A DNA stretch of 61,463 nt, filler included, from Hausera hauseri (taxonomy: Eukaryota): the NCBI GenBank assembly GCA_046269625.1. It is 11 parts of 11 records of this genome, joined end to end, with 100 filler letters (N's around TTAATTAATTAA, not from the genome) between each part and the next. Parts side by side here need not be neighbours in the genome. Positions count along the whole stretch, not along the records: positions 32,764 to 38,073 come from JBJURY010283171.1; 10 more parts are not named here. The stretch is one strand, 5' to 3'. Position numbers and translations under genes: made by a program. Shown one piece after another: positions 2,891-61,463 of the stretch. The notes under the pieces were generated by a model. The model worked only from the letters and a program-made list of their open reading frames with translations, was not told where the DNA came from and ran no database searches. Position 1 is the stretch's first letter. Every line of letters starts with the position of its first letter.

Positions 2891-4189
2891 TTGTCTTATT
2901 TCCACCTGGTTATAATATTCGAATAGATTTTACCTATTTCAGTAATTATTATTATTTCATCTAACCGTTAGATGTTTTCAATTGAAATATAATCCAAAAA
3001 ATGAGTTTGTAGCTCACTCAACTTTTGGGACACCGTATCGAATTTTTATCATAGAAATGTAATTTGACAGTGACCCTTTTTGAGTTACTCGTGATAATAA
3101 TGGTGGAATCGACTACAGATATACAACTACTTTTACATTGAACATGGCAATACTAACTCCTTGATTATAACTCATTGACATTTCAATCTTACATATTTAA
3201 TTGTATAATTGAAACAATTAAAAGATGACAAATGAACAGCAATGAAAAAGACAGCTACATGCATATTTCATTATTCTGCTTTTTATAGTGACACTTTCTA
3301 CCCTTTTACCTTCCAACAACCTCTTCTCTTCTCGGATTCTAATCATACTCTCCTCACAACGACGTAGTATGAGCCTGACTAATAGTCTGCATATACCCAC
3401 GGTTTAATCACCTACTCAGTACATTTCATTGAAATATTCCTTAATCATACATCATATCCAAATAATAAATGTCAAAATATATTAACTCCTGGAATAAAGA
3501 ATAACGCTTCTCTATTACAATTCTTAATTTCTCAAAACAGTGCCCTTTCCTCATTAGAGGTCATTCCTCATCACAGTGCAAAGTTTGCGACCGAAACCTG
3601 TAATCAATTTTCATAGTTCAACTAGCCATTCTTAATCTAGTATACGGTCTTCGTCTTTGGACAATTCTCTGCACGTCACAGAAGACTACAGGTGTCTTGA
3701 TGGTTTGATATCATAGTGTCCAATCGTTTTCTCGATCAGCGCCTGTTCAATATTGTTAGTGCAGCATCTACTTCTCCAGCTTCTCAATGCCCTTGATGCC
3801 GATAATATTCCATGATTCTCATTTTCACATTATTGAAGCTCAGTCGCTCATGCTATTGAAGGCTATTTTTTAAACTGACTTGTCCAATAAATATACTAAC
3901 TGGTAAATGTAACGAACTACAAACATGTCTGATTTACGCCGTGGAATGTGATTTAATTTTAAAAGCTTCATTGTGTCTTCTTTTCTGTGGCTTTACCAGA
4001 CATTGTTTATTTATGTCATCATCTTTTAAACTTCTTTTATATTAATTACTCTCCCTTTTGCCATTATCTTTTCATCTTTTTTAAAAAAGACCTTATTCCT
4101 GACAATACAATCACTTGACTACTACTACTCCATAACAATATCTTGCCATTGCTATTTTACGCGTTATAAGAATTATAGTTCTGGTACAT

Positions 4190-7877: not shown

Positions 7878-9614
7878 TTAAGGAGAATCAAGGATAATCT
7901 GATCGGTCCAAGCAGAAAAATCAGCACTGTCCTTCGGTAGATTACATGCCGCGGCAACCGCGGCCTGTTGGTGAAATGAATTGAGGGGCAAGGTATCCAT
8001 TTGCGGGTCATCGGCGTCAGTTGGTACTAATGGACGATGAAAAGAAGGGTTTATGGGTGGGTTTTCTAATAGGGAGAATTGCGACCAGTCACAGTGGGGT
8101 ATAGAGGTAAGGGGTTTATAGGGTAATTTTGTAGTAAGGGTGGGTAAAAATTGGGGACGCCAGGGAGTAAGTAGATCACTAGAATGGCGTCTTTCTTTGT
8201 ATACATCGTGGGCTATCAGAATCATATACTCAGCATTCATTTTCCCTGGAATATAATACTCAAAGGATTTATACAATCTATTAAAGGGAACGATGCCATT
8301 TTTGGTATGATTAAGATCAATGGCACCCAGTAATACGGTGTACGGCACACGCCAAAGGGTAAGGAAAAAGTGGGGGTCAAAGGTTATTAAAATTCTGCCG
8401 TATAATGCACGGTACACGTGAGCCCTAACAAGTGCAAAATCTGGGGCATAGTCTAGGTCATCCAGGGATACACCGTGACAATGTTTATCTACGTTGTCTA
8501 TCTTTTCCCTGGGTTTTACATACGTTTTATACCTAATATTGAGAGCCTCATCAGGGTCTGTAAGGAGGTCTGCTAGGTAAATTTGAACGATTAAGGGGAG
8601 ATTTCCGGAGAAGGATAGTGTGTATCCAGCGAAAAGAAGGTCCCGAATCATATAGGAATTAGGGATTCGAACATATGAATGTACAAATTGGTGTGGAGGT
8701 TGTGGAAGCCAATCTAATTCATTCAAGGGCAGTCCACTATCAGGGGAGGTATCCAAATATTGTCTCCAGGGCGGGTTGTCAGCATATTCTAACTCAAAAA
8801 ACAATAGAGATGCCTCTCTTATCGAAATAGAGATCGAGTCCGAAGACCAAACATCCGTCTTTAAAATTACGGATCTATAAGAAGATAGATATAATTTAAA
8901 TTTTGGAAGAGGGTTTTTATGAATTTCAATAACTACAGATCCGAGAGCTACGGTCAGTAAAAGGTCTTTAGGCTGTGTGGGAAAGTTCAAAATCGAAAAT
9001 TGCTGTTGTATAAGTTGATATAGGGGATGCGGTCCATAACAATGTAACCAGTGCGATATTAATATACAACGATCTTGCAAACTATTTCCTTTATACCTAT
9101 TAGGGATTGTAAATACAGAGGGGAATTTAGTGATTGTATGACGAAGCGAAGTGTTCATGCGTAAGGACCTATATGTAGAGCGGGAACGCAAGACCTCGCT
9201 GATAAAAGGAATACACGACCGATTTGGTAAATACAGGGGTATAAGAGGCATTTGCTGTAAGGAGGAAAACTGTAATCCTGGTCCTAAATTTCGAATTGGT
9301 GGAGATTGATCTAAGAGGTGAGATATGCCGGGGGGAGATAACACATTAGGGGGTTGAAGTGTTAGGGGTGATTGAATATCCGACGCGGTTATGTCAACGG
9401 ACGCCATTTCGATTTCGATCCGAATAGTAGATTGCATCCAAACCTCAGCATGTGATAAATCTGATTCTCGGGGAAATTGTAATTTTGCATTGTCGCAATC
9501 TGAGATCGGAGTTATTTGATTATTGGTGTTGGTAGAAGTCACTAAAAAATAAAAGTGGGTTTGAGAAGTATACGCCCGCACCTGAAAGTGATAGGTCGTG
9601 GCAATTCTTAATTG
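7878..9614 (-). CDS. Intact orphan ORF (~570 codons) in frame with and 3' of the env-like ORF of a Gypsy element; function unknown
   Basis: Stop-free from 9614 to 7878. Separated from the upstream ORF only by the TGA at 9615-9617. Pro-rich N- and C-termini; no motif recognised. Confidence 0.75.
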   Translation of the reverse strand, partial: QLRIATTYHFQVRAYTSQTHFYFLVTSTNTNNQITPISDCDNAKLQFPRESDLSHAEVWMQSTIRIEIEMASVDITASDIQSPLTLQPPNVLSPPGISHLLDQSPPIRNLGPGLQFSSLQQMPLIPLYLPNRSCIPFISEVLRSRSTYRSLRMNTSLRHTITKFPSVFTIPNRYKGNSLQDRCILISHWLHCYGPHPLYQLIQQQFSILNFPTQPKDLLLTVALGSVVIEIHKNPLPKFKLYLSSYRSVILKTDVWSSDSISISIREASLLFFELEYADNPPWRQYLDTSPDSGLPLNELDWLPQPPHQFVHSYVRIPNSYMIRDLLFAGYTLSFSGNLPLIVQIYLADLLTDPDEALNIRYKTYVKPREKIDNVDKHCHGVSLDDLDYAPDFALVRAHVYRALYGRILITFDPHFFLTLWRVPYTVLLGAIDLNHTKNGIVPFNRLYKSFEYYIPGKMNAEYMILIAHDVYKERRHSSDLLTPWRPQFLPTLTTKLPYKPLTSIPHCDWSQFSLLENPPINPSFHRPLVPTDADDPQMDTLPLNSFHQQAAVAAACNLPKDSADFSAWTDQIILDSP

Positions 9615-11267
9615 TCATAAGATAATACTATAATTATCATTATCGTGTCTGTGGGCCAGTTCATCGGATACAAAGTAGTTCATATTAAAATTAATGTCAT
9701 TTTGTGGGATATTTTCATACTCATTAATATAGGTTGCATAATATATTTCGTTAGATCTTTTAAAATACATGGCGAGGGAGAGACATACTATGATTACTAT
9801 GCCTGAAATACTAATTACAACTACCCATAAATAAAAGAGGGCCAATGAGTTTTGTTTTGATTTTACAAATGCACTAGTTGTTGAGGCAGGTATATTGGAC
9901 AAGAAATAGGAGGCGAACTTTTGTTTCCAATTTGTATAATTTGTTACAAATAATATGGGCTTTTCCAGACGTTTAGACGTTACTAAACGTGTTATATTAC
10001 GTCTGTGTGTTGTTAAATTTGATAAAGATTGATTAGGTGTAAATTTGATTGTTGTAGCTAGGAGATCCATTTTCGTAGGGACTATACGCGAGTTTAACAT
10101 AGCAACTCTTGGTTTTATCCATGGTGATGACCTGGATGCAAATAAATGCTTTAAGTTTAGCGTAGTATTAATTATAATTCGACGTAAGGGATTTACCAAA
10201 ACTGTAAATTGGATCCTGCATACTGAAGGCCGAAAATGGATATCTTCTTTTTTTATTATTGTAAGCTGAGGCGGAGAGGGTCCAACAGACACCAACCAAT
10301 GTTTCCCTACATACATAGCATCCAGTACTGGAGGGCTCCATCGTGTTCGTAAAGCATCAATAGAAAAATAGGGGATTGCTTTCCACAAAAATGATCCTGA
10401 TGTAAATAAGGGTTGAATAGGGGGAATCACCCAATCATATATGAAATATATGTTTGTCTCGGATATTGGCATGGTAATTTTGACCCATGTCGATTTATTA
10501 TAGTATATTGGGAAACGTGGTATATCAAGAAACAATTTTGGGGTAATAGTCCGTTTAGTAAAATTTAATCTAATTTCTTCTATTTGCACTAAAACTCCAG
10601 ACTGGCCTTCAGTCCATAAATATTGATAAGCCAAAAATGGTTCTCTCAAAATTCGGAACGAAGGAGTTCGCAAAAGAGGTGTTTCCCATCTATCGATTAT
10701 TCTCATTGAATCTTGATCAAGTAAGGCGAAAGTTTGCTGCACTGTAGGTTTGTCCACTTGGTAAAAACATGCGCCTCCAGGCGACTCAATTGTACAGAGG
10801 CCAAGAAATTCTATTGACTGGTTGGTCCAAATGTGAAATATTAAAATTTTAACAGTGTTAGTCGTATGAGGAATATTTGTATGCAGATAGGTTATCTGAT
10901 TTTGATGTCTCCATCCCATGTGTATCGCTGGTCGACCTTCATAAGTTCCCAAACAACAAATTAAAGTAAAAATAAATGTTGCGTATGAAATACAATTTCC
11001 AGTTGGGGTAGAGTAGGTTGGTAGAGTAATATCTGTTACTTTTATTTTATCTTTCTTTTCATTTTCCTGTTGTTCTATCTCTGGATTTTTACTTTTCGAT
11101 ATGGGCGGAGAAGTTAATTTGCACCATTCTGCTGCTAGACAAACAATTTCGTTACGTTTACCTACTTTCTTTTTAATAAAAATATTGTTGTCTGTAACTC
11201 GTTCAACCTGATAGGGTCCCTTCCATGGACGAGTTAATTTAGGTGATAAACCTTTTTTTGTTACATG
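9615..11267 (-). CDS. Gypsy integrase C-terminus (GPY/F) fused in frame to an env-like type I membrane glycoprotein (5'-partial)
   Basis: From the contig edge: HVTKKGLSPKLTRPWKGPYQV (integrase GPY module), then a hydrophobic CISYATFIFTLICCLG, 105 codons with no stop before the listed 445-aa ORF. That ORF has 8 N-x-S/T sequons, a C-terminal TM (LALFYLWVVVISISGIVIIVCLSLAMYF) and a 48-aa tail. Confidence 0.8.
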   Translation of the reverse strand, partial: HVTKKGLSPKLTRPWKGPYQVERVTDNNIFIKKKVGKRNEIVCLAAEWCKLTSPPISKSKNPEIEQQENEKKDKIKVTDITLPTYSTPTGNCISYATFIFTLICCLGTYEGRPAIHMGWRHQNQITYLHTNIPHTTNTVKILIFHIWTNQSIEFLGLCTIESPGGACFYQVDKPTVQQTFALLDQDSMRIIDRWETPLLRTPSFRILREPFLAYQYLWTEGQSGVLVQIEEIRLNFTKRTITPKLFLDIPRFPIYYNKSTWVKITMPISETNIYFIYDWVIPPIQPLFTSGSFLWKAIPYFSIDALRTRWSPPVLDAMYVGKHWLVSVGPSPPQLTIIKKEDIHFRPSVCRIQFTVLVNPLRRIIINTTLNLKHLFASRSSPWIKPRVAMLNSRIVPTKMDLLATTIKFTPNQSLSNLTTHRRNITRLVTSKRLEKPILFVTNYTNWKQKFASYFLSNIPASTTSAFVKSKQNSLALFYLWVVVISISGIVIIVCLSLAMYFKRSNEIYYATYINEYENIPQNDINFNMNYFVSDELAHRHDNDNYSIIL

Positions 11268-12270: not shown

Positions 12271-12659
12271 ATAAAAATGTCTGTATGTGCTCGCGTATGT
12301 GTGATAGTTTTTGTTTTAATATTGTAAATTTTTTACAAAATATTTAAAAAAAAATTTTGAATAGATCGATATTTTGCCATTTTTATTTTAGATACCAGTT
12401 TACCCATTTTACACGTTAGAAGTTTTTTTGTGTTGTTATTTTAAGTCTTTATTTTTTGGAATTTTATCATATCATATCATATCATATCTATATCGGATAT
12501 TTATCAGCCAGCTCTATTTTAATAATGTTGATAAACGTTTATAGCCGATTTTGGCGACTTCTGATAAGGGGAATAAGTTATGGTGTATTGTAGTTAAATT
12601 TATTTATTTATAGTTAATACATTTTTATTTGTTTTTAGTTTAATTTGTTTATCATTCAG

Positions 12660-15600
12660 AAATGTCCGCAATGTCCCATGTACTGCATCTCCCTCATAAA
12701 TGAGGGTGGAAAATGACACAAGGAAATTATCAAATATTATTCAGTAAACAAGGACACGTACCTGTGTTCCGCGTGTTTTATTCTAAACACATGCCCGTAC
12801 GCCGACTTTTATGAGATGCACAAGCATCATCTCGGTCCTTTCACGCGGGCCAAGAAATGATGCATATGCATTGCCACACATGCCCACGTTACTGTACTTG
12901 TAAGATGCACGGCGTTGATGGTTGTCATAGTGCAGTGGAGCGGTACTATGGTACAACAACGGTGCATGGTAAACGGGCCTATGTATGTCCCGGTTGTTCT
13001 ATAGTTGAGACGCAAATCAACTATGAACAATTCTACAACAACTATAAGGACTACTTAAACCAGTTTCAGAGGTCCTAAATGGAAATATTAATGGAAGCAG
13101 CAAGAAGCAGCAGCAGCAGGAAACGTCAAGCATCAGCAAACCTTGACGAATACTTTCAAAACAACAGAAGTATGAAACAGCAGCAGCAGGAATGTGAACC
13201 ACCCATTACTGCCAAGTACGACCTGAAGAGATCTTACGTGGACATAAAGGTGGACATGTCGGCGAAAATAGCAAAGCAATTAAGGATGTACCCGCTAATG
13301 TGCGTAACCGGTTGAAATCAGAGGTGGCCAAATTCCAACAAAACCACTGAAAAGTGCAATATTCAGCACTTGCAGAATTTGAAGATATTCAGGGTGACAG
13401 GAAACAATAGTACCTGTCACATAGCGCCGAACCGTATTCCGACGATTTTATTGCCGATGTAGGTGAAAAGATCGATGAAAAAATCGCCAACTACACGGAA
13501 AAGGGTAGTGGATTGCGAATTATAAAAATTGTCACTCTCGGCTTTATCATAACAAAGTCGAGTGATATAATTTACCTCTCCGGACGATCATTCATACCGA
13601 CACCTACAGATCTAAAGCAGTCTTATGCCGTAGTGAATGTAAAAAATACTGACGACGAATACTGTTTCATTTACAATATTCTTGCCGTGTTAAAATATGA
13701 CCAAGTGGAGAGACATAGTGCATATCGTCCAAATCAGTATCGGCAATATTTTTCCGAATTGGACTTTGACGAATGTTGGATGCCTATAAAACTGAAGACC
13801 ATTGCGACTTTTGAGCGGCGTAACCGGACAGTGTCAATTAACGTGTTCCGGTACAACACAATCATGGAAATACCGGTAGACGAAGAAATTTACAAGAACC
13901 CCATCTGGACGTAATTTATAGAAGTCGAAACCCGAATAGACGTCCAATAAATTTGTTGCTGTTAGAGAAAAAGGATTGAAAATTCCATTACGCGGCCGTG
14001 ACAAATGTGGACAGACTGCTGAACACGGAACATGACCCGTTTATCGAAAAAAGTATAACGTTGTAAATGGTGTCCTGCATGTCTGCATGGATTCAGGTTG
14101 GAAACAACATAAGAGAATCATGCGGCACTATGCAGACAAAATACATCGGGAACAACAATGTATGTAATGCCCGTCAAAAAGGAACTCAGGTTCACTGATT
14201 GGTCAAACACAGACAGTCCGGCATATGTAGTATATGCCGATATCGAAGATATCTTACCACGACACAACATATATGGCCAAGAACATGTTCCAATCGCCGT
14301 CGGTATGTTGGTTGTCCCAATAAAAACCGCAGGTCAACCACAATATTATATTTTTCATGGCTGGAACTGCGTAGGCGATTTCCTGCAGCATTTGGAAACA
14401 ATAGTAGAAACGGAAATCGCACCCTGGTACAGTAGAAATAGCAATAATCCTTTGATTTGGACAGATAAAGATGAACGTCTGACGTTTGCAGTCACAGATG
14501 AATGTTACCTGTGCCACAAAATATTGCCGTTTGATTCTCACGAACGGCTCGTAACGGATCACGATTATTTTACCGGTCGATATCTCGGAGCCGCGTGTAA
14601 TTCATGCAATTTGGCATGGCGTGTGCGGTCATTCCTACCGATGATATTTCATAAATTCAAGGTTTACGATTGTCGCCATATTTTGAAATGGTCAATAAAC
14701 GGATTTCCGCACTGGGTACTATCCGTAATTCCAACTACGGTGGATAAGTACCTGTCCTTGTCAGCACGCATAAACCGGTTCCAGGTACGATTCTTTGATT
14801 CATTGCAATTTCTCAATGAATCATTGGCAAAGCTGGTAAATGCCTTGTCACATGTGCCGCTAACATTCCCTGTACATATTGCGTGTAATAAAGGCATATT
14901 CCCGTACGAGTTTGCGATATCGTATAAGCTGCTCCAGACGACAGACGAATTACCACCGCAATGGCCCGGTATCACAGAAGAAGAATATCACAGAGCAGAG
15001 TCGTTTTGGCTGCAGAAACCTGTTGCAGTACATGCCTCAGTATCTGAAATTGGACGTGTACTTGTTAGCCGATGAGTTTCAGACATTTTCAGCTAAAGAG
15101 TTGGCACAAGATAGGTTGGAGCTACTCAACTTTCACTCAATACCAGGAATGAGTTAGGCATCAGCTCTGATATCATTGTATCGGGATGCCGAGCTATTGC
15201 CAGACCCGGAAATGTACTGGCTGTTTGATGTTGGTATTCGCGGCTACATGAAATTTGTAAACAAGCATCAGGTCAGTGCTATCGACACCACATCATTGCT
15301 GTATACTGATATTAATAACCTGTAAGGCTGGGCGCTTTCGCAACCCTTGCCGTACGGTTCATTTGAATGGGTAATCGACGGACAAGATCTGGACGACATA
15401 ATGGTCAATATGCCACTAGCAGACATGGCAGGCTCAGTCAGATACCTGATCGAGATCGATCTCGTGGTTTAAGATGAACTGCATGACGTTTTTGACGATT
15501 TTCCGGTCACACCATTTAACCAATGTCCACCAGGCTGAAAAGTGAAGAAACTGCTCATGACGCATGAACCGAAGCTGAATTACGTGATCCATTGGAATCT

Positions 15601-16602: not shown

Positions 16603-19600
16603 AACTTCCCGAGGACCTTCTTGTTGGTAATTGAATAATTTGGATGATCCTTCGGATAGTCTGAGGTATCCATATACTGCGCCAATTTTGCATACTTTTC
16701 AAAGACATCATCTGTGCGAATATATTATATGAAACTGTCCGTGTCCATGTACATTATCTGGAGCTCCTTGAATCCGGGGACCATGAATTTGCAATGAAAA
16801 TTATATATCAAGTTCTTGGATAGATCCAATATGGACATGCCCACATATATAAGCTTGTTGAACTCAAGTGATGCCTTGAGCACATGGATGCTCACTAGAT
16901 TCTTTGTGTAGATTGTGCTGCTGTGGACATCGGGCTTAGCGATGAGTTTCTTTGTCCTCTTCCAATCACATACCAGCTCAATGTTTATTCGGTTCCGGAT
17001 ATTCTCCATAGTTGTGCCAAAGACCGAGTTGTTGTAAAGTTCGAATTGGTCCTTTTCAAACTCGTACTTGGTATTGGCCCACAAGTGGGTATTGAGATCT
17101 ATGTGTGGAGTCAGCCATTTTGACTAGATGAACTGCAGGGCCCGATGTATCCTGATGGCTTGGAGTCCATTTTGGATAGCCTGTTGGAAATTTATGTAGT
17201 GGACTACATATCTCTCTCTGTTTTCGAGGTGACAGAGCAGCTTCTTATGCTTTCCGTGGGGCGGAGGCCTGCTTTGCGGCAGAAATGGCAGCTGCTCATG
17301 CCTTGTGTGGATGCCATATGGGTATTCCATATCCACCTCCAGTATATAGCCTGTATATCCGGTGGGATCTATGTCCAATATTGGGATATCTTCAGGCTTC
17401 TCGACCCATTTGAAGTTATCATAGGGCAGTGGGTTGCTGGTATAGCGCAGCATCGCCGCCAAGTTCATTCCTGGAGCTGTAAAGAAATGGACTGGATCTA
17501 ACCTGTGGCTCTTAAGGGTCACATCGCTGAAGCTTCCGAAGACATCTGTAAGGAGCAGAACATCTGTGAGGAGATAGATATCACTGTATTCTCCTATTGT
17601 CATGAACTGGAAGGTTTGAAATACTTTATGGGCATGCTCATAGTCAGCATCGCTAATATGACTGGATGACAAATGACTATAAAAGTCCTCCTTGACCGGT
17701 AATGCTTCTTCATTCAGTGTTTCCCATGACGTTGTATAGTCTTAAGGGAACACGCCTTTCCTCTTGACGAGGTCAAATGCAGTGGGGAAGAATCGCTTTG
17801 TCTCCTTGAGTTCTTCTGCATGGAGGTTCATCAATAAACTATCCAGTGACGAGCACATTTAGCGAAAGCTGTCTATGAATCGAAGCTTGATGCGATCCAC
17901 ATGCTTGGAGAAAGTGATATATTTTTCCTCACTATTGAGAGTGACATCAGTGTTTCCTTCAATGTTAACCAATTCCCGAACAATGAAGTGGGAATCATAG
18001 TTATTGAGATTGTGGAACATTACAGGCATATATGTGCATGTTTTGCAGCAAAGATTGTAGCTGTTGCATGCTGCATTTCGATATGTGCCTGTAAAATGGC
18101 AATGACCCCTGACTTAATAATTATCCTTAGTGAAGAACTTGTCGCATAAGTAACATGTTGCTGCCTTGCACCATTCATCTTCTTGCTGCTTCGACATGAT
18201 CATTGTATCCTTATGCTGCTGAAGCATGTTTTCAAGCTTATGAACCGTGTCTTCTAATCTCTTCATAAAATGTGCTTCTGGGTCTGGCCCTCTGAATAGG
18301 AATGCTTCATTTCCAGTCCTTTGGCATACATACAATATGATGGGGTTCATGATATTGGTTTGTCGTTGTGCTCCTATGTTGGGGATTAGGGCTGCAGCTG
18401 TGAACTGGGCTGAGGATAGCCTCAAAATCACAATGGACAACAATCGGCACCTTCTGCATCTTTTCGAACTCCTTAAATTCCACGTAATCTTCCTTGGCGA
18501 ATTCTACTCGGATGCAGTAATTTGTATTACAGTAGGTCTTGTGCTCCTCCAGCTTTTCTGCGGCTGTGTTTCCATTACATAAATGAAGCATCTCTTGCAT
18601 ATTTCCATCATTGATTTATACTTGGATATTTGGGGCCCTACGAGGCGCTCAGAATTCTTGATCCAGATGAAATGCCTCTTTTCCCCATCAACTAGCAGGA
18701 GTAGATCCCTATGATCCTCCAGTTCCTCCTTGCACACATGTAATGGATAAAATTTGTCCTCCTCCAATCCGAAGATCTTGATTGAGATGTTCACGCTTTC
18801 GAATTTCACGACTTCATCTAGGCTTGACAGGAATGAAATACAGCTGAAGTCGCATGTGTGCTGCACTTTGTCATACATCCAAACTCGGGGAGCATTTTGT
18901 TGATCCTGGACTAGATTTGATAAAATGGCATACATGAAACACATGCTGTCATTATTATGAACATTGACACATGTTTTTTTCTTAACTATCCATTCAGGAA
19001 GCGGTATGTAGGACTTGCCTCTCATGGGAGAATACTTGTGCACATGCACAAGTAACCCCTTTATTGTTGTTAAAGTCCAACCGCTCTTTTGTCCTGGCTT
19101 TCTTCGGCTTCGCGGATGAGCCTTGTATAGTCCTATGTAATGAAATCCTTAATGTTAAAGGAATTTAGTAGTGGCCTGTTCTTTGTCTTGAAGGCCCTAT
19201 TAGACAACTCTCCTTTGACATTGGTGAAGGTGGCTTCTAATTTGAAGTTCACCTTAAGGGCCTTCAGTTGTCCTGGAGAATTCCTGCTGCCTCCTCCTTT
19301 GAATATTCCAGGAATTCATGGAACGATGTGTGCCCCACGGCTGCAGTAAAGTATCGCCGCACTTTGCTCTTCAGTGCAGCTGCATCAACAGGCCACTGTC
19401 TTTGACTTTTTGATGGAGCATCTACTGCTACTTCTAATGGGTGTTTTGTATCAGGCTTTGCTACCAAAGCCGTCTGTGCTGTCATTGCAAGCTGTGCTGC
19501 CAAAGCAGGCTGTGCTGTCATAGCAGGCTGCGCTTCCAAAGAAGGCTGTGCTGTCACAGTAGGCTGTGCTGCCAAAGCAGGCTGCGCTGCCAAAGCAGGA

Positions 19601-20132
19601 TGTTGCTCATTAAATATGACCTTCTTTGGCTGTGAATCGACGTCTGTTAAATGGGCAATATGATCTTTGTAAAATTGCATGTATTCTCCATCACATACCG
19701 TCTCACATCCTGGGCATATATAACAGATGACCCTATTAAATTTGTATCCATAATAGCTCTTCATGGCATTGTGGCAATTCTGAGGGTTGTGTATTACACA
19801 TGTGCAATACACATATGAACTGCACTTTTGGTTTTTCTTTGACACAAAAGACGTTATTGGCATATTGGTACTGAATATTTGTATTTTCGACTTGGCAAAA
19901 AAAATCAAGTGCTGTTTATGGACATTGTAAAATTCCTCGTACCCTGTCCTGCACACTACTTCTCATGTAGGGCATATATAATACTAAACTCTGTTGTACA
20001 TATGGCCAAAGTATTTCTTCATAACACTGTGGCAATTTTCCTGCTCGAGCAATTGAGGCAAACATTCACTGTAAAGTTTGCACATCTAAAATCAACCAAT
20101 TATTTGAGTAGCACAATTAAAAAACTCACCAT
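16603..20132 (-). pseudogene. Maverick/Polinton pPolB, family B, decayed (internal deletion removes motif A)
   Basis: SYIPLPEWI..KK..VNVHNNDSMCF, CDFEA (exo I), CYLC endonuclease VII-like region, YLLTDVLLL, LYNNSVFG (motif B), YMDTDSFI (motif C). LRYT is joined directly to SNPLPY at ~17440. Confidence 0.9.
19455..19605 (-). repeat. 18-bp coding minisatellite (AAQPAL-like hexapeptide, about 8 units) in the pPolB N-terminal linker
   Basis: PALAAQPALAAQPTVTAQPSLEAQPAMTAQPALAAQLAMTAQTAL in ORF 19264-19956. Confidence 0.85.
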
Positions 20133-32771: not shown

Positions 32772-33146
32772 ATGAAGTAAGTTTTTATATACTTGTGTAT
32801 ATTTTATACATGTAGTACATTTCAGATTGAAAAGGCCTTGGGCAAACTCAGAAATTTCCGTGGAGTATATCCATTGGATAAAGTCCCCGACTATCTTCTC
32901 GGTAGAGGATATGTGATTAACACACATTCTACTAATCTACCATGAGAAAACTGGATAGCAGTATATGTATCACCAGATAATATTCAAGTGTTTGATCCAC
33001 TTGGGATGTATTACACATCATCGCTGGAGACGAAATTGGAATGTATGTGACAACCCGTCATATACAATGATATTATGCATCAGAATCCATTGACATTTCT
33101 ATGTGGGAATTATTGTTTGGACTGGCTTAGATGCCAATGTTCATAA
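32772..33146 (+). pseudogene. Maverick adenain-like cysteine (maturation) protease with a 39-nt intron
   Basis: After removing GTAAGT...TGTAG (32777-32815): MNTFQIEKALGKLRNFRGVYPLD...YVINTH...LP*ENWIAV...VFDPLG...HQNPLTFLCGNYCL. This matches F.GV.P.D / NT / G.HW / FD..G / Q...CG.YC. Two in-frame stops; the catalytic His position is Asn. Confidence 0.8.
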
Positions 33147-33191
33147 AATTGTTATAAACGTTGTTGTGTTAATAAATGTTTCGTTGAAATA

Positions 33192-33720
33192 ATGTCCGTC
33201 TTATTTATTGACTTTGAGGGATTTGTGAATAATAATAATGATTTCATCATAAAGGAGCTATGTATAATGCCAGTGGATAATATGTTTCAGCCACTGCATT
33301 GCGTATTTGCGTAAGTGAATTTTAGTATAGTACATGTGATTTATGCTATTTTAGGCCTACACTGCATTGTTGAACAAACAAGGCTCAAGCAACAAATGCT
33401 TACTTGACCCAACATCATTACAAACTGAATTGGGAGGAATATAATACTCAGTTTTGCAGAGATTGCCTTATGCCAGATATTGGGAATGTGATATAAATGA
33501 ATCCATGTTCTATGTCAAAGAACATGCTGATGGGCGAAAGAAGATACTTCATAGCATATTTGTAAAATTGCGAATACGTGCATATGAATGTACAAAATTG
33601 GTAACTATACCAAAGAACATTACATGTATTTATCGTCAACATGGTTCACACTGCGCTTATAAAAAGTGTTTAGCGTTATATCAAAGTTATATTGTTGTGA
33701 AATGTGTTATAAAAATTAGT
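33192..33720 (+). pseudogene. Maverick-associated DEDD/DnaQ-like exonuclease-fold gene with a 44-nt intron
   Basis: MSVLFIDFEGFVNNNNDFIIKEL, intron GTAAGT...TTTTAG at 33311-33354, then FAP...NAYLTQHHYKLNWEE...CIYRQHGSHCA. One stop and a frameshift. The fold assignment is inferred from the DxEGF motif. Confidence 0.55.
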
Positions 33721-33777: not shown

Positions 33778-34065
33778 TCACATAATAATTGTATCATCAC
33801 TGTCACTGTCACTGTAAGGTTCTGTACCTGGTAGGAAGTCATGTATGGGTTTTATCAGGAGTCCTACCCATTTTACATACAGGCACTGGTCTGCAGCATA
33901 ATGTACTACCACAAACTCGCACTTTTTCCTGCATAGCGGACACGACATTTTACTCCTTAACCATTTCTCTAGACATCCTATACAGAACGTATGTGTGTCG
34001 CACGTCGCCATTCTCATGGTCTTATCAAGCATATGCTCCCAACAAATAGGACAGGTTTTCGACAT
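33778..34065 (-). CDS. Small RING-finger (C3HC4) protein directly downstream of family B pPolB
   Basis: MSKTCPIC...CDTHTFCIGCLEKWL...CPLCR with an acidic DSDSDD tail. Likely start is the ATG at 34065; frame intact. Confidence 0.8.
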   Translation of the reverse strand: MSKTCPICWEHMLDKTMRMATCDTHTFCIGCLEKWLRSKMSCPLCRKKCEFVVVHYAADQCLYVKWVGLLIKPIHDFLPGTEPYSDSDSDDTIIM

Positions 34066-34288
34066 TTTGAAATAAAGAAAGATTAAGGCAAGTAAATGTC
34101 GCACTGTATTGATTTTTTTATTCAAATTCCAAATTTGTTGATCTTACTTGGTCTTAACCTATATAGTGGTTACTCAGATTTACTTGGCCTTGCCCTACCT
34201 TCCACATTATTTGATCAAATAAGACAACACGATATTTATATACAAGATTTATTGCAACAAAAAATAATAAAAAACAATATGTACATAT

Positions 34289-37200
34289 TTACAGTGCTAC
34301 ATGTCCATGAGGTAGTGTATAGACTCCATCGCTCAGGATCTTCAGATTATCGTCCATCCAATCTAGGCTCTTCTTGTGCAGTTCTACTATTTCGATAATA
34401 TGATCCCTAGATTGGATCCGCCGCATTTTCGGTATTATGTGAGTATGCTCCTGCAGAACTCTAACATAGTCCGCAAACAAAATCTTTTTGCCAATGTATT
34501 TCTTTGAACACCATTTGCTCTCTTTTTGATTTGGCCACATACATCGAGAGCGTACATTTTTGATTTGAGAGCCACCAATCGAATGATGATCTTTCCATTC
34601 ACCTCGTTTTTGAATTTCCTGAGGACTTTCTTGTTGGTACTAGAATAATTAGGTTGATCCTTAGGATAATCTGAGGTATCCATGTGCTGAGCCAATTGGG
34701 AAAAATCCTCATACATGTCCTAAGTATGGATCTGATAGATATAACTGTCAGTGTCCATGTACATCATCTGTATGAACTTGAATGTTGGTACCATTATATC
34801 ATGATGGAAGTGGTATATTAGGGATTTTGATAGGTCCAATATTGCCATACCCACATATATGGGCTTGCTGAATACTAGTGATGCTTTTAGCATATGGACG
34901 TCTACCAAATTCTCAGAATATATGGTGCTGCTATGAAAGTTAGGCCTTAAAATAAGCTTCTTTGCCCGCTTCCAGTAACACAATAGCTCGACGTTGATCC
35001 TGTTGCGGATATTCTTTATCGTCTTGCCCAAAACGCTGTTATTATACAGCTTAAATTGATCTTTCTCGAAATAGTTTTTGGTATTTGTTCGCAATTTACT
35101 ATTTAGGTCAATGTAGGACTGCAGCCACATGGACTGGCTGAACTAAATGGCTCTGTGAATCTCGGTAATGTGGAGTCCATGTTTAACTGCCTGCTGGAGA
35201 TTGATGTAGTGAACTATTCCTATTACCCAAATAACAGAGCAACTTTCGCTGCTTTCCATGGGGCGGTAACCTGCTTTCAGGGAGGAAAGGCAGCTGTTGA
35301 TGCCTTGTGTGGATAAAAGCCGGATATTTCATATTTACTTCCAGCATGTAGCCCGTATCTCCAGTGGGATGTAGATCCATGAGATGATAAATCTATGTAG
35401 ATCCATGTTGAGTCGTATTGAGCCATATACTTGTTGTTGGCCTCACTATACCGGTGAATGCTTGGCATATTCCCCCTCTAATGCCTCTTTCGATCATAAA
35501 GATCATGTCGTAATCCTTAATGATTTGCAGCCTAATACCGGTATAGAGCAGAATTGCTGCCCAGTTTATCTCTGGAGCCGTGAAGAAATAAGCCGGATCC
35601 AAAATATGGCTCTTCATTGTGACATCCCTGAAACTTTCAAAGACATCTGTCAGCAGCAGTACATCGGTTTGGAGATATATATCACTATATTCCCCTAATG
35701 TCCTGTATTAGAATGCCTGCCAGACGTTCTGAGCATGCTGGTAGTTTTCATCATTGATATCGCAGTCCGACAGCTGGCTGTAAAAGTCCTTCTTGGTCGG
35801 CAATGAGGACTCATCCAGTGTTTCCCATGATGTTATATAGTCATAGGGAAACACCCCTTTCCTTTTAAGCAGGTCAAAAATACCCGGAAAGAATCGCTTC
35901 GTTTCCTTGAGTTCTTCGGCAGGCAGGTTCTTCACTAAACTGTCCAGTGACAACGACATGAATCGGAAACTATCGATGAAGCGAAATCGGATTTTACCAA
36001 CATGTTTGGTGAATGTGATATATTTCTCCTTACTGTTGGGGATCACATCTATATTGCCATCAATGTTGCCTAATTCTCGGACTATGAAGTGGATGTCATA
36101 GCCGCTGAAATTATGAAACACTACAGGCACATATTTGCATGTTTTGCAACGAAGATTGCAGTTGTTACATACTGCGCCCCGATATTCACCTGTAAAATGG
36201 CAGTGATCCTTGACTTTCCAATTTTCATTGATGAAGGACTTGTCGCACAAGTAGCATGATGCTGCCTTGCGCCATTCTTCTTCTTGCATCCAAGACATGT
36301 TCATGTCGTACTTATGTTGCTGCAGCATGTTTTCAAGCTTATCAGCTATATCTTTAAGTCTCTTCATGACATGTGCTGCTGCACCTGAACACCTGAATAA
36401 ATATGGTTCACTGTCCAATCCTTTAGCATACAATAAATACAATGATAATTTATGATATTGATATGCTGTTGTACTGCTATATTGAGGACTGAGACTGCAT
36501 GTGTGAACTGGCCTGAGAATAGCCTCAAAGTCTCAATAAACGACAACTGGGACCTTGATCTTCTTCTCAAATTCCTTAAATTCGATATAGTCCTCTTTGG
36601 GAAATTCTGGATTTACACAATAATTGTTGTTACAATACATTTTATGCTCCCTCAACTTCTCCACAGCTAACTTACCGCTGAAATGGGATAAACATCTTTT
36701 GCATATTTCCATTCCGTGTTTATGCTTTGTTATTTGGGATCTGACTAAACGTCTAAAGTTCTTTATCCAAACATAATGTTTCTTATCACCATCGTCTAGT
36801 AGGAGCAAATCCCTATGATCTTCCAATTCAGCATCACATATTTGTAAGGGGTAGAATTTGTCCTCCTCATCCAATCCGAAGATATTGATGGACATATTGT
36901 TGATGTGGCTGAACTTCTTGATTTCATCTATGGATGGAGGGAATGTGATACACTGAAAGTCATAGTTGTGTTGGAAATCATTATATAGCCAAATTCGACT
37001 TGCTGCATGTTTTTGATCCCGTATGAGTTTACATAAAATGGCACACATGAAGCACTTGTCATTATTATGGACACTGATTCAAGCATTTTTCTGCTGACTC
37101 CATTCCCGAAGCTGTATATATGAACTGCCTTGCATGGAGGAGTATCTGTGTACATATATAATCAGTCTCTTGATGGTTGCCAGAGCCCATCCACTCTTCT

Positions 37201-38073
37201 TATCCAGGCTCTCATCGACTTCACGGATCAGCTTCGTATGCTCTTCATGCAGCCATTCAGCTATATTTGTATTTTTCAATATGGGCCTATTTTTGGTATT
37301 GAGAGCCCTACTTGATTCTTCAGCATCGACATTGACGTATGCGGCCTCAAGTTTCATAGTAACCTTAAGGGCCTTGAGCTCAGTCATACTGTCCTGAAGG
37401 ATTCCCTCAGTTTCTTCCTTTACATATTCCAGGAACTCCTTGATGATTGTTTTCCCAGCTGCATCAATGACATTTTTGCGGACTTTTTTCTTTAATGCAG
37501 CAGCATCAACTGGACGCTGTCTTTGGCTTTTTGGCGCAGCCGCTACGCTTGTTGAGCCTGAGGCATCTTATGGATCTGATAAGCGTTTTAATCGTGAATC
37601 TCGATGTACTACTGCAGGCTGTACTACTGCAGACTGTACTGCTGCATCTCGCTGTACTGTGGACTGTACAACTGGCCTATGTTCATTAAATATGATCTTC
37701 TTGGACTTTAATGCGAATTCAGTAAAAAAATGCTTGTGATCTTCATAGAACTGTATGTATTGTCTATCACATACAATCTCACATCCTGGGCAAATATAAT
37801 AGAGGATTCTACTGAATTTGTGGCCATAATAGCTCCTCATAGTATTGTGACAATACTCAGGGCTACGTATTGTACATGTGCAATAAACATATGAACTGCA
37901 CATTTGGTTTTCTTTTGGCACGAAAGACGTTATTGGCATATTGGTACTGAATATTTGTTTTTACGACTTGGCGAAGGAAATCAAGTGTGTTTATAGACAT
38001 TGTAGAATTCCTCATACCCTGTCCTGCACACTACCTCACATGTAGGGCATATATAATATTGAATCTTGCTGAA
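34289..38073 (-). pseudogene. Maverick/Polinton pPolB, family B, near full length, decayed
   Basis: KSGWAL, GSSYI, DHCHFTGEYRGAVCNNCN, FIDSFRFM, RKGVFPYDY, ERGIRGG, KLYNNSVLGK, YMDTDSYI, MDTSDYP, KSKMYA. Confidence 0.93.
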
Positions 38074-47936: not shown

Positions 47937-50501
47937 CACGAAAGATAATAAAAGAAATGAGGGAAAACAAGATCATTCGACCAAGCTGTTCCCCCTGGAC
48001 GGCTCCTGTAGTAATGGTTAAGAAGAAGGATGGAATCATGAGATTTTGCATAGATAATCTAGCGTTAAATAAAATACCCGAAACGAATACATACCCATTG
48101 CCAAGAATTGACGAAATGCTAGACAGGCTCCACGGATCGACCATATTCTCAACGGTAGATTTACAGAAAGGCTATTGGCAAGTGGAGGTGAAAGAAGAAG
48201 ATAAACCAAAAACAGCATTTTCAATCGGAGAAGGATTATGGGAATTTAACAGGATGCCATTTGGGATAAACAATGGACCACCAGCATTCCAAATAGGAAC
48301 GGAACTCTTACTGTTAGACGCTCCACACGCCATGGTATATATGGATGATGTAATAATAGCATCATCAAATTTCCAACAACATTTAAAAGATCTGCAAGAT
48401 CTTTTCGATAGGCGTGAAATAATGGGTTTGAAGATAAACCCGAAGAAATGTTCATTTGCTCAAGCGGAAGTAGATTTTCGTGGACATAAAGAAGACAGAC
48501 AAGGCGCAAAGCCTCAAGACAAACTATTGGGGAAAATAAGAGATTTCCCAAAACCAACTACAGTTAAAGAACTACGCCGATTCTTAGGTTTGGCGAATTA
48601 CTATCGGATATTTATAAAGGATTTCAGCAAAATCGCAAAACCCTTATATAAACTATTGCGTGAAGACCTGGATATAGTAATTTGGACTAATGAGTGTCAG
48701 AGAGCGTTTAAATATTTAAAAGAAAGATTGCTAACTGCTCCTATCTTAATTTACTCCGATATGAGCAAGCCATTCATATTAGCCACAGATGCAAGCGATT
48801 ACGGAGTCGGAACAGTGTTGTCACAAAAAGGTGAAGACGGTAAGGAGTACCCAGTAGCTTATGCTTCACGGAAATTTAATAAACACCAAAAGAAATATGC
48901 AGTAATTGCAAAGGAGTTGTTGGCAGTAATATTTGCTCTAGAAGTATTTTCACCGTATATTAATGAGAACAAACCACTGTTGATATATACCAATCATTGA
49001 ACACTACAATGGCTGAAACAGCATGAAAATCCAAACAATTGATTATTACGATGGGCTCTTAAACTGCAACCCTATACATTAAATTTCCAGTATATACCTG
49101 GAACACGAAATGCCAACGCAGACTATTTATCCAAAATGACAAAAGATTCAAAAGTGAAAAAAGAGGAAATAGCAGCAGTCTGGAGCATGGATGGATCAGT
49201 AGAAAAGATCAAACAAAACCAACAGGAAGATCTCGAAATAAAAGTAATTAGAAATTTTATACAGAATAAGGTACTACCAACAAACAAAGAATTAGCCCGA
49301 CATCTAGCTCAATTTAGCGAAGAATATGAAAAAGATGGATTTTTGTATTACATCCACCAGGAGGGACCAGCATTAGTGATTCCAAAGAAGAATAGAACAG
49401 TTCTATTAACGCAATATCACGATGGATTACTCGGTGGACACCAATCAGCAAGGAAGACACTTAATGAGCTAAACGAAAATATTTCTGGCCCACTATGATG
49501 TAGGACGTACAAGAATGGTGTGAAAGTTGTAAATTATGCGCTACCCGGAAAAATACCGGATCAAAATTCAAAGCGCCTTTGAAGGTATGGGACAACCCCC
49601 CAGCACCATTCGAATTTACCGCAATGGATATAACGGGACCACTACTATTAACTCTGAATGGAAACAAATATATTTTAGTCTTCATTGACTATTTTACCAA
49701 ATGGGTTGTTGCCGTACCAATGACTGATATAAAGGCACGTACCATTGCTGAGAAGTTTGTCGAAAATATAGTATTTAATTACGGAGCCCCAAGAATTATT
49801 CCTACCGACCAAGCATCAAATTTAACCGGAACTGTAATGCAATCTATATACGATATATTGAAGATATTGAAGTTACGATCCACACCAGGACACCCAGAAA
49901 ATAACGGATTGGTTGAGAGGTATATTGGAGATCTGAAAGGAAAATTACAAACAGTAGTTAATACTAGACAAGACGATTGGGACGAATATGTTAACGCGTG
50001 TGTGTTCGTTAATCGAACGTCAGTACACAAAGCTACTAAAGAGACACCTTTTTATCTAATGTATTTACGGGTGCAAGATTACCAATTGACCTAGACTTTA
50101 ACGTGAGACCTGTCTCACACTTAATCGAAGTGGAAGATTATAAACAATTTATGCGGGAACACCTCTAATTAGCCTACAAAACGATTCGTGATAACCAGGA
50201 GGACTATAAATCAAAATGTAAAAGATAGTATGATAAGAAGACCAAGCAACCAAAAATTAAGATAGGCGACGAAGTAATGTTGTATACTCCGGCAATTAAA
50301 AAGGGTAAAACGTCTAAGTTGGATAGACCATATAAAGGGTCGTATGAGGTAGAGAAAGTGAATATACCGAACATCTGTTTGAAGAGAAATAATACGTCTG
50401 TGAAGATCCACGTTAACAAATGTAAACCAGCGGCCCGAGAAAGTGAGCTAAGGAAAGGTGAAAAGGAAGTGGTACTAAGTATTACTGAAAAGGTAAAATA
50501 G
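47937..50501 (+). mobile_element. Ty3/Gypsy pol (RT - RNase H - integrase), decayed
   Basis: SPWTAPVVMVKKKDG, DLQKGYWQ, RMPFG, YMDD; RNase H TDASDYG and ELLAV; integrase HHCC (HDGLLGGH...CKLC), D-D-E (MDITG, TDQA, VERY) and GPY-like YKGSYEV. Confidence 0.95.
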
Positions 50502-56084: not shown

Positions 56085-57230
56085 TATACAGGGTGTTTGA
56101 AAAGTCCCTGTCGATTAGAAAAACCAACAAAAGTACATGATACTAATTTATTTATCAAAGGGATCAACTTGTTTACCATCAGGTGAGCACAAAATGCAAT
56201 TCTGCGCAAAGACCTTTCATGGATTTTCAATAGCATGTCTATCGTCACCTTTAGGAATACAGATTTGATTGATTTCTCCAATAAATCATGCGTTTTTGGG
56301 TAATCTGCGTGGACATGCTGTTTGATATTACCCCTCAGGGCAATATCATAGGAGGTTAAATCCGAGCTGCGTGGTGGCTATTGCGTTGGCCCGAATTTCC
56401 CAACCCATCTGTCTGGGAAGTGGTTGTTGAGAAATTCTCTGGTAGTGAGGGAATTATGCGTAGGCGCTTTATGACTGATATTCCTCTGCCTCAATGCATG
56501 CAGGAATCTATTCTCCAGGAGGTCAGTGTACACTTCCGATGTTATTTGACCATTTACCACAAATGGTCCGATAAGGTCAGAGGCTGACATGGCTGCCCAT
56601 ATCATAATGGATGGTGGATGTTGTTGTACTTGTTTGTTGAAGTGAGGATTTTCTTTGTTCCACCACACGAGATTTGGTGTTCGGGCATCCGCGTACAGCG
56701 CACATTCATCAGAGAAGAAAAAATTTTGATGTGCAAATGGTGATGAATACTTTGTCAGTAGCGCTCCGCAAGCAAGACACCTGTTCTCCTCATAATCACT
56801 GGAGAGATACTGAGAAAATATCGGGCGAAATGGCTTGAATCCCTCTTTGTGAAGATACTTATAAATTGTCTGTGTCAATGCTCCAATACCAGCAGCCAAT
56901 CCACGGATTGATGAGGTTGGTTTTTGAGAAAAGGTGCTCACCGATTTCATCTTCACGTGATGGCCTGCCACTACGCTGCATATCTGCTAGGGAACCACTA
57001 GTGAACAGCTTCTCCTCACAATTTTTGATGACAGATCCACGAGGTGATGAGGCATCAAATCACTCATTGAGTTTCTTTCGAACTTCAGCCACAACTAGTT
57101 TTGATTTGTCACTTTCATGCCACCAACATGATGACAAGAATCGGTATTAACTGTGTAAATGCTGCTATCAGTCATGGAGTGAAATGTTAAATCCATACAG
57201 AAGTAAATTTCATTTAAATGATTGTTCAAA
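56085..57230 (-). mobile_element. Tc1/mariner-superfamily DNA transposon, decayed
   Basis: Transposase motifs FFSDEC, NPH...HPPSIMIWAAMS...IGPF, FPDRWVG, then *PPRSSDLTSYD (WPPRSPDL..D). The second catalytic Asp (QQDGAP) is deleted. TA + CAGGGTGTTTGAAAAGT TIR-like end at ~56085. Confidence 0.88.
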
Positions 57231-59230: not shown

Positions 59231-59331
59231 TATAGGGGAGTAAGGAGACTTTTTTTTCTCAAGACCGACAAATAAGGTGTCATATTTCAATTTATAGTAT
59301 GTATAACTTAATATAAAACATCTATTTTATT

Positions 59332-61463
59332 TTGTTTTCCATTCATAAGTGTACTAATTATCCCATGAATTGTGTCTCGCGCATACATGTGCAGCAGGAG
59401 CAGTTCCATCAGCAGATGGCTAAAGATTACACCGTTGGCACGGACTCATTTTTGTGTCCAAGGTGCGGTAGTATTTCAGCCCTTTGTCTATACCCCGACT
59501 TTTATGCGATGCGCAAGCACCACATTGGCCCATTTACGCGTGCAAAGAAGATGGTGATTGTGCATTGCCCCACATACCCGCGATACTGTAGTAGTAGAGT
59601 GCATGACGTTAATGGTTGCTACAATGTAATGGAGCACTACTATGGCGCCACAACGGTGCACGGTAAACGGGCCTACATTTGTCCCGGTTGTTTGATAGTT
59701 AATGAAATTAACTAGGAACAATTTTATAACCAGCACAAGGAACACTTGAACCAGTTTCAGCGGTCAAAAAAGGAAGTAGCGATGGCGACAAGAAATACCA
59801 GTATCCCGTCAACAAGCAGGAAACGTCAGTACTCACGAAGTCTTGACGAATACGTCCGAAATAGTACCGAACAGCAGCAGCAGATGCAACATCAGGAACC
59901 TTCCATTACTGTCAAGTACGATCTAAACAAATCGTACGTGGACATGAAAGTAAACATGTCGGAACCACAACACTACAGCTGAGACATATTCCGTCCGGTG
60001 TGCGCATCCGGTTGGAATTAGAGGTGGAGAAATTCCAACACCAACACCGCAAAGTGCAATATTATGCACTTACAGAGTTTGATAACTTTGAAGGTGACAG
60101 GAAATAATGGTACCTGTCACATCGAACTGTACCATATTCGGAAGATTTTATTGCCGATGTAGGCGAAAAGTTAGATGAGAAAATCGCCAACTATACCGAA
60201 AAGGGTAGTGGATGGCGAATTATACGAATTGTCACCCTCGGCTTTATCATAACAAAGTCGAATGATATTATATATTTGTCTGGACGATCATTCATACCGA
60301 CATCTGCAGCTCTGAAGCAGTTTCTGGCGGTAGTGAATGTAAAAAATACTAAAGATGAATACTGTTTTCTTTACAGTATTCTGCCGGTATTGAAATATGG
60401 ACAGACATAGTGCATCTCGTTCAAAATTGTATCAGAAATATTTTCCCGAATTGGATTTCGATGAAAGCTGGATTCGGATGAAACTGAAATCCATCCCGAC
60501 ATTTGAATGCCGTAATCCTTATCTGGAAATCAGCATTTTCCTGTACAACACAATCGTAGAAATACCAGCAGACGAAGAGATGCACAAAAGCCCACACGTG
60601 GATATAATTTATCGCAGTCGGAACCCGAATGGACGCTCGGTAAATTTGCTGATGTTGGAGCAAGCAGATAAATTTCACTACGTGACCGTAACCACATTGG
60701 ACCGACTGCTAAATATGGATCACCACTTATTCATCAAAAGCGCATAAATTGTAAATTGTGCCCTACATATCTGCATGGTTTCAGGTCAAAAACGACATTG
60801 GAAAAGCATGTGGCACTGTGCAGACAAAATTCATCAGGGACAACAATGTACATTATGGCAGTCAAAAAGGACTGACATTTAGTGACTGGTCGAAAATAGA
60901 CAGTCCGGCATATGTGGTATATGCCGATATTGAGGCAGTCCTACCGCAGCACAAATTATACGACCAGAAGCACATTCCAATCGCCGACGGTATGTTCAAT
61001 AAAAGCCGCCGGGCAACAGCAACATTACGTTTTTATGGCTGGAACTGTATACGCGATTTCCTGCAACATTCAGAAACCATTGTGGACACGCAAATCGCAC
61101 CGTGGTACAGTAACAATAGCACTAAACCCTTGATATTGACAGACAAATATGAACCGTTGCTATTCGCTGCCACCGATGAATGTTACATCTGAAACAAAAT
61201 ATTACCTTTTGATGCACAGGAACGGCTCGTACTGGACCAAGATCATTTCACCGGTCGATACCTGGGATCGGCATGTAATTCATGCAATTTAACAAGGCGT
61301 ATGTGACCATTCCTACCGGTGATCTTTCATAAATTCGGAGGTTATGATTGTCACCATATACTGAAATTGGCCATCAACGGATTTCCGCACTGGGAACTAT
61401 CCATAATTCCGACTACGATGGAGAAATACCTGTCACTGTCTGCTCGTATAAACCGGTTCCAGG
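59332..61463 (+). pseudogene. Maverick/Polinton pPolB, family A, N-terminal half, decayed
   Basis: FLCPRC...HH and YICPGC...FY..H N-terminal repeats, KGSGW, NVKNTKDEYCF, YADIE, QDHFTGRYLGSACNSCN. Runs off the window end. Confidence 0.9.

Follow-up and report, generated by a model that had tools for sequence, protein, structure and literature searches.

Introduction

The core genes of Maverick/Polinton elements are usually called intronless, as an earlier note on this DNA had stated, and the accessible parts of two sources bear this out. In PMC8097293, introns were not observed in intact vertebrate Mavericks, and in bioRxiv 10.1101/2022.07.12.499685 the core genes of nematode Mavericks, the protease included, are intronless and introns occur in captured cargo. 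Introns have also been described in the accessible parts of PMC12220804, which has group I introns in cryptophyte PLVs, and of PMC11957031, which has introners in the Mavericks of dinoflagellates, most of them gained once the element had integrated. Our search of the literature returned no description of spliceosomal introns in a Maverick protease or polymerase; Repbase, supplements, and the founding papers of 2006–2007 lay outside this search and may hold spliced models. The available portions of bioRxiv 2023.08.22.554363, PMC8502044, bioRxiv 2025.02.07.637071, and PMC5803895 contain nothing on spliced core genes, nor do those of bioRxiv 2026.10.13.758929, PMC2646287, and PMC6431247, and the string "splic" has 0 matches in the main texts of PMC8502044 and bioRxiv 10.1101/2025.02.07.637071. 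For intron length in monogeneans, the accessible part of PMC4040987 gives modes near 32 and 58 bp.

Here we describe two introns of 39 and 44 nt, one in a protease gene and one in the gene that follows it (gene 2), that are very probably U2-type spliceosomal mini-introns in a high-copy Maverick/Polinton family. Such introns in Maverick genes had been proposed in the earlier note, and the proposal is well supported by the conservation of their ends and positions.

Results

Composition of the window

The window, by which we mean the whole stretch of 61,463 nt that was analyzed, consists of 11 contigs of 4–12 kb each, joined by identical 100-nt N44-linker-N44 spacers. Several of these contigs carry diverged and decayed copies of protein-primed DNA polymerase B (PolB), about 7 copies of two families in the window, and two contigs carry a Gypsy-type reverse transcriptase (RT) or integrase. 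Thus, the window looks like a bin of eukaryotic mobile-element fragments rather than a single viral genome.

On contig 4 (16603–28561), two diverged polymerase copies that are ~70% identical lie back to back and read outwards, and one polymerase copy has, in its N-terminal part, a Q/P/A-rich spacer encoded by an 18-nt tandem repeat (19449–19610). Elsewhere, two adjoining long ORFs of 578 and 550 residues (7878–11267, − strand) have no Pfam match and share their contig with a Gypsy-type RT; one of the pair ends in a hydrophobic, membrane-anchor-like segment and is possibly env-like. A 202-residue frame at 56378–56986 (− strand), which had no Pfam match at 0.05, presumably resembles a Tc1/mariner DDE transposase fragment.

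The genes with mini-introns start contig 6 (32764–38073). The protease ATG lies 8 nt from the contig start, so the upstream context comes only from L001, a related locus described below. Elsewhere in the window, neither the protease nor gene 2 has a sister copy. The features of contig 6 are as follows.

32772–32776, + strand: protease exon 1, the start codon plus two bases
32777–32815, + strand: intron 1, 39 nt, phase 2, GTAAGT...TGTAG, 79% AT, with an in-frame stop inside
32816–33146, + strand: protease exon 2, adenain / Peptidase_C5 family
33192–33310, + strand: gene 2 exon 1, 39 codons, with a D-x-E motif; tentatively DEDD/Maelstrom-like
33311–33354, + strand: intron 2, 44 nt, phase 2, GTAAGT...TTTAG, 75% AT
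33355–33693 (end approximate), + strand: gene 2 exon 2, open for 118 codons in L001
33778–34065, − strand: RING-finger gene, Pfam zf-RING_2 E = 3.3e-10, ATG at 34065
34104–34147, − strand: 44-nt GT-AG stretch upstream of the RING ATG, a weak intron candidate
34289–38073, − strand: decayed protein-primed PolB with an EndoVII insert, Pfam DNA_pol_B_2 E = 3.9e-7 and Endonuclease_7 E = 9.3e-8

The 5′ end of the PolB gene is cut by the end of contig 6. In sister contigs, 1- and 2-nt deletions at 34113 fall inside the 34104–34147 stretch, which is possibly a 5′ UTR intron of the RING-finger gene.

Protease gene and gene 2 in the window

Both introns have the ends, lengths, and coordinates that the earlier note gave them. 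It had also stated that their removal restores the reading frames, and this holds, but it made no mention of the stops that interrupt these frames. Splicing out intron 1 makes the two protease exons continuous in frame, and premature stops follow in exon 2 at 32943–32945 and 33048–33050. Removing intron 2 likewise restores the frame of gene 2, which then meets a stop six codons past the junction (33371–33373) and is shifted near 33490. With stops in both genes, the frame in the window copy is restored yet not open, and this copy of the protease and gene 2 is a dead, decayed pseudogene. If the introns are retained, the protease ATG (32772) reaches a stop at codon 3, the first in-frame Met past that stop is residue 76, which lies beyond the catalytic-His site (~residue 57), and the exon-2 frame of gene 2 meets a stop within intron 2.

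The protease had been called adenain-like, and it is so at the level of the family. A profile of 40 protease relatives matches adenain 1avp at E = 7e-12, and 32 of the 40 family members match Peptidase_C5. A Pfam search with the window protease alone gave no match, nor did a PDB sequence search with a four-sequence protease profile.

The label "exonuclease-like" that gene 2 had been given is not borne out by a family search in Pfam, PHROGs, and PDB, which returned no match; a single close homologue was found. Exon 1 carries a conserved D-x-E motif, and in the atlas Maelstrom and Rv2179c-like nucleases are weak leads (0.78), so that we identify gene 2 only tentatively as a nuclease. A "mael"-linked group of polintons exists according to the accessible part of bioRxiv 10.1101/2025.02.07.637071, and the weak Maelstrom lead fits with it. 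The best atlas matches of exon 1 are unnamed clusters of 38, 62, and 60 residues (0.94, 0.90, and 0.87), with Preplasmiviricota among the few recorded members of the 62-residue cluster and Arthropoda among those of the 60-residue cluster. A further lead is that in these short clusters (38–62 residues) gene callers may have captured no more than the first exon of this split gene. For exon 2, atlas scores are low and the fold model, with a pLDDT of 37, is unusable.

A related locus with the same architecture

Scanning metagenome contigs, we obtained 2 loci from 321 candidate stretches, L001, which served for the comparisons below, and L002; no relatives were found in viral contigs, and a bacterial genome scan gave 2 weak matches from 26 candidates. 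L002 (1–7631) is a distant Polinton-like element (29% identity, 24% GC) in which the protease match begins ~140 nt upstream of the first ATG ORF.

L001 is 73% identical to the window at the nucleotide level over 944 columns, and its genes stand in the order minor capsid-like ORF (a label that we assume for it), 130-residue ORF, major capsid, protease, gene 2, and polymerase start. The capsid gene and its neighbor are uninterrupted, and the protease architecture lies 42 nt behind the capsid stop. Intron 1 is 41 nt long in L001 (2493–2533), with 6/6 donor bases and the last 5/5 bases kept, and intron 2 is 43 nt long (3029–3071), with 6/6 donor and 3/3 acceptor bases kept. The 11 nt that span the protease start and the donor are identical in the window and L001. 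After removal of the introns, both genes of L001 have open, family-typical frames, the exon-2 frames running to natural stops over 109 codons in the protease and 118 in gene 2, whereas those of the window copy are broken by stops.

The ends of the introns were to be compared with their interiors, a check proposed in the earlier note, and the two introns differ in this respect. The interior of intron 2 has drifted, its identity to L001 being 54%, close to the 52% of the intergenic spacer and below the 66–73% of its exons. The interior of intron 1 is 75% identical, nearly the 77% of its exon, and this exon-like conservation weakens the support that intron 1 draws from the L001 comparison alone. 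A GTRAGT donor and a YAG acceptor are conserved and interior and length vary, as in U2-type introns, and this too is weaker for intron 1. Exon 1 of gene 2 is 72% identical to its counterpart in L001, in the frame that requires splicing.

An alternative in-frame start, together with reads that show no splicing, had been named there as grounds against the introns, and on such starts the outcome is divided, because the window protease offers no Met before the catalytic His but L001 has upstream ATGs. From these other ATGs, the unspliced frames of L001 are open in both genes, as ORFs of 136 and 146 residues that fall in clusters of 42 and 11 members, and they gave rise to P0002 and P0022 in the databases; in the window lineage, stops interrupt these unspliced frames.

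Membership in Maverick/Polinton elements

Contig 6 carries a PolB (DNA_pol_B_2, E = 3.9e-7) and an adenovirus-like cysteine protease, the latter recognizable as adenain and Peptidase_C5 at the level of the family profile. The double jelly-roll capsid, which is cut off in the window, lies directly upstream of the protease in L001, where its model (pLDDT 76) matches the capsids of iridovirus, PBCV-1, and Sputnik at E ~1e-16; a PDB sequence search with the capsid profile gave no match. A retrovirus-like integrase and a packaging ATPase are absent from contig 6 and L001, both of which are short fragments, and an rve match at 49504–50091 follows an RT on another contig of the window.

Variation among sister copies

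The element family has a very high copy number, with 22,708 contigs of sequencing run X1 aligning to 1,837 nt. For variants in intron 2, we used 2,990 contigs from 4 runs aligned to 33251–33420 (170 nt). All 7 indel rows lie at 33317–33349, within the intron, and 6 of the 7 are not a multiple of 3; 2 of these rows rest on one contig. There are 20 substitution rows, 8 in the interior of intron 2 and 12 in exons. Sister copies that lack the GT-AG boundaries had been named as grounds for rejecting the introns, and for intron 2 the sister copies keep them, with 0/20 substitutions and 0/7 indels at the donor or acceptor. Under uniform placement, the chance that all 7 indels fall in intron 2 is ~8e-5, but AT-rich DNA attracts indels anyway. 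Intron 2 tolerates frame-breaking indels among sister copies.

Over the 1,837 nt, 12 of the 41 indel rows are listed, 3 of them in intron 2, 3 in the intergenic spacer, and 6 downstream, with none in intron 1. None of the 2,990 contigs, which are of unrecorded kind, skips intron 2, and among 15 of 23 joints, again in contigs of unrecorded kind, none skips intron 1 or 2. As evidence of host range, the ten runs should not be counted separately, because X2–X4 repeat the variants of X1 at far lower depth.

The protease clade in databases

From a profile search, we took the best 150 of 2,898 protease representatives. The start MNTFQIEKAL that splicing gives to the window protease had been described as typical, and it does follow the M-N-T-x-Q-I of the family: 54 of these 150 begin MN, 19 begin MD, and 63 have T at position 3. 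The start is at the canonical place in 109 of 154 alignment rows.

The first 64 of the 154 rows were placed in a quick tree, where the window protease sits in a clade of 12 rows (SH-aLRT 84), of which 7 are N-terminally extended, 4 are without a start (the window exon included), and 1, P0147, is canonical with an ordinary M-N-T start. All 7 extended proteins have C, N, Y, or F followed by S in place of M-N, a pattern present in none of the 26 extended proteins outside the clade. These four residues have only pyrimidine-ending codons, and thus the pattern fits a YAG/T acceptor that has been read through. Three of the 7 extensions are long enough to include a donor, and all 3 allow ATG-[AG]A/GT-[AG] at 37, 41, and 47 nt, whereas this is possible in none of 13 controls, which were hand-picked from the 26 outside proteins. 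The implied intron of 41 nt is confirmed by the DNA of L001; the clade-wide case for the intron is a back-translation of proteins, with DNA for 2 loci only. Beyond the residues compatible with splice sites, the extensions have no common sequence. Taken together, the seven database proteases look like products of gene callers that read through intron 1. The extended proteins are 40–62% identical to P0002, which makes intron 1 probably much older than the expansion of the family.

A candidate intron at the polymerase start

A third candidate, absent from the earlier note, lies at the polymerase start, in two copies in the window.

20086–20129, − strand: candidate polymerase-start intron, 44 nt, phase 0, directly after the start codon, contig 4
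23264–23307, + strand: candidate polymerase-start intron in a more decayed copy, 44 nt

The counterpart in L001 reads ATG/GTGAGT...TTTAG over 51 nt (3639–3689) and has in-frame stops inside, and the L001 polymerase has no other Met ahead of its Cys motif. The interiors of the two window copies are similar, with 0/300 shuffles scoring as high. The copy at 20086–20129 needs no splicing and alone proves nothing, because an ATG directly follows its acceptor. No mini-intron candidate inside the polymerase bodies passed the scan.

In the second polymerase family, an AT-rich stretch of ~75 nt precedes the Cys-rich start at ~12580–12660 and ~59275–59350 (both + strand); it is bounded by ATG/GT and CAG in the copy on contig 3, and the copy on contig 11 is without these ends. 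This stretch is possibly a longer start intron.

Discussion

We consider it highly improbable that the two genes are not spliced at all, with translation beginning at other in-frame starts (an upstream ATG or a non-ATG codon) and the AT-rich stretches serving as N-terminal extensions or leader DNA. L001 and its cluster, with unspliced frames open from an upstream ATG in both genes, would agree with this, as would the exon-like conservation of the intron 1 interior, but protein databases probably over-represent the copies in which the frame with a retained intron is open. In the window, the protease frame has a stop in intron 1 and no Met before the catalytic His, and the exon-2 frame of gene 2 is stopped within intron 2. 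Moreover, lengths differ among relatives by non-multiples of 3, the extensions of these relatives are alike only at residues that splice sites would encode, and the first exon of gene 2 is conserved in the frame that depends on splicing. That the patterns arose from chance and decay, as fortuitous GT-AG matches where degenerate, AT-rich sequence meets the contig edge, is barely credible, even though the copy is decayed and its ATG lies so near the contig end. The pattern that we counted (GTAAGT...YAG, 36–55 nt, at least 72% AT) was chosen after the sites had been seen; it occurs 2 times in the 5.3-kb contig 6, whereas 300 dinucleotide shuffles average 0.027 occurrences and none of them reached 2, so that two such sites exceed chance for what is a post hoc pattern. 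Chance is largely refuted by L001, an independent assembly with the same architecture and open exons.

It is highly improbable, too, that an intron-generating transposon (an introner) recently seeded these introns in copies that were already integrated, in which case they would be uninformative on the active element. Introners have been published inside Maverick-like proviruses of dinoflagellates (in the accessible part of PMC11957031), and the lengths here cluster at 39–51 nt. In a similarity test of 8 candidates (28 pairs), only same-site pairs and one other pair beat the shuffles, this being the two L001 introns, whose mutual similarity exceeded that of 299 of 300 shuffles (1 of 28 pairs). 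Introns 1 and 2 of the window, on the other hand, are no more alike than shuffles (83/300 as high), the introns hold the same position at 73% nucleotide identity and, if the protein extensions are read as above, at 40–60% protein identity, and 0 of 2,990 contigs skip intron 2. An ancient introner origin may nevertheless lie behind these introns.

On the reading that we favor, that of spliceosomal mini-introns, the integrated element would be transcribed by host RNA polymerase II, and the short AT-rich introns would be recognized through intron definition and removed by the major spliceosome. Splicing would join the start-codon mini-exon to the body of the protease and so create the M-N-T-x-Q-I start, whereas an unspliced message of the window lineage would stop at codon 3. 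Because the start codon stands on a 5-nt exon, splicing of the protease would be obligatory, and judging from these gene structures the element likely depends on the host splicing machinery for these proteins. The protease intron appears to be old and common to the clade down to ~40% identity, and would therefore have been carried through replication of active elements; it would predate the death of the window copy and not have been added afterwards. The element is copied from DNA to DNA, with no reverse-transcription route for intron loss, and start-proximal introns often favor expression or export. The start-proximal introns of the protease and polymerase would thus persist most likely because DNA replication gives no easy route to their loss, and they may also aid expression. 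A regulatory switch that acts through these introns is possible.

A broader proposal, which we regard as rather unlikely, is that these loci belong to an unrecognized old clade of invertebrate Polintons in which the start codons of the protease and polymerase stand on mini-exons of 3–5 nt followed by introns of 37–51 nt, such that virion maturation and replication would be spliceosome-dependent and possibly switched. If true, this would limit the usable hosts and cell types to those with spliceosomes that handle very short introns and explain why gene callers hid these genes, and the 38–62-residue clusters would mean that many further elements hide this intron as well.

Surveys detect the core genes of Mavericks and Polintons by their long open frames. 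If core genes carry conserved mini-introns, some lineages would depend on the host for splicing, and intact elements would be scored as broken or protease-less. The gain and retention of introns would become open to study in a virus-like element that replicates as DNA, and junction reads would show that late virion genes are expressed from elements with no particle seen so far.

Adenoviruses have a related protease and polymerase and require the host spliceosome, but there splicing serves to attach leaders to long transcripts with alternative processing, not to remove an intron of 40–50 nt after the start codon. The vertebrate Mavericks of Barreat and Katzourakis (PMC8097293) resemble the present family in their protein-primed PolB, double jelly-roll capsid, adenovirus-like protease, and mostly decayed state. 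Adintoviruses (PMC8502044) and the insect mael polintons (bioRxiv 10.1101/2025.02.07.637071) are alike in having adenain beside the penton and hexon genes. The earlier note had associated very short introns with parasitic flatworms, but the intron lengths here, 39–51 nt, do not closely match the monogenean modes (PMC4040987). With the nematode Mavericks of Widen et al. this family shares the presence of introns inside a Maverick, although in the nematode elements these are in cargo and here in a core virion-maturation gene. The dinoflagellate Maverick-like proviruses (PMC11957031) likewise have spliceosomal-type introns within the element. As far as the accessible parts of these sources go, the dinoflagellate introns are repeated and transposon-derived, whereas those described here are mutually unrelated in sequence and fixed in position across diverged relatives.
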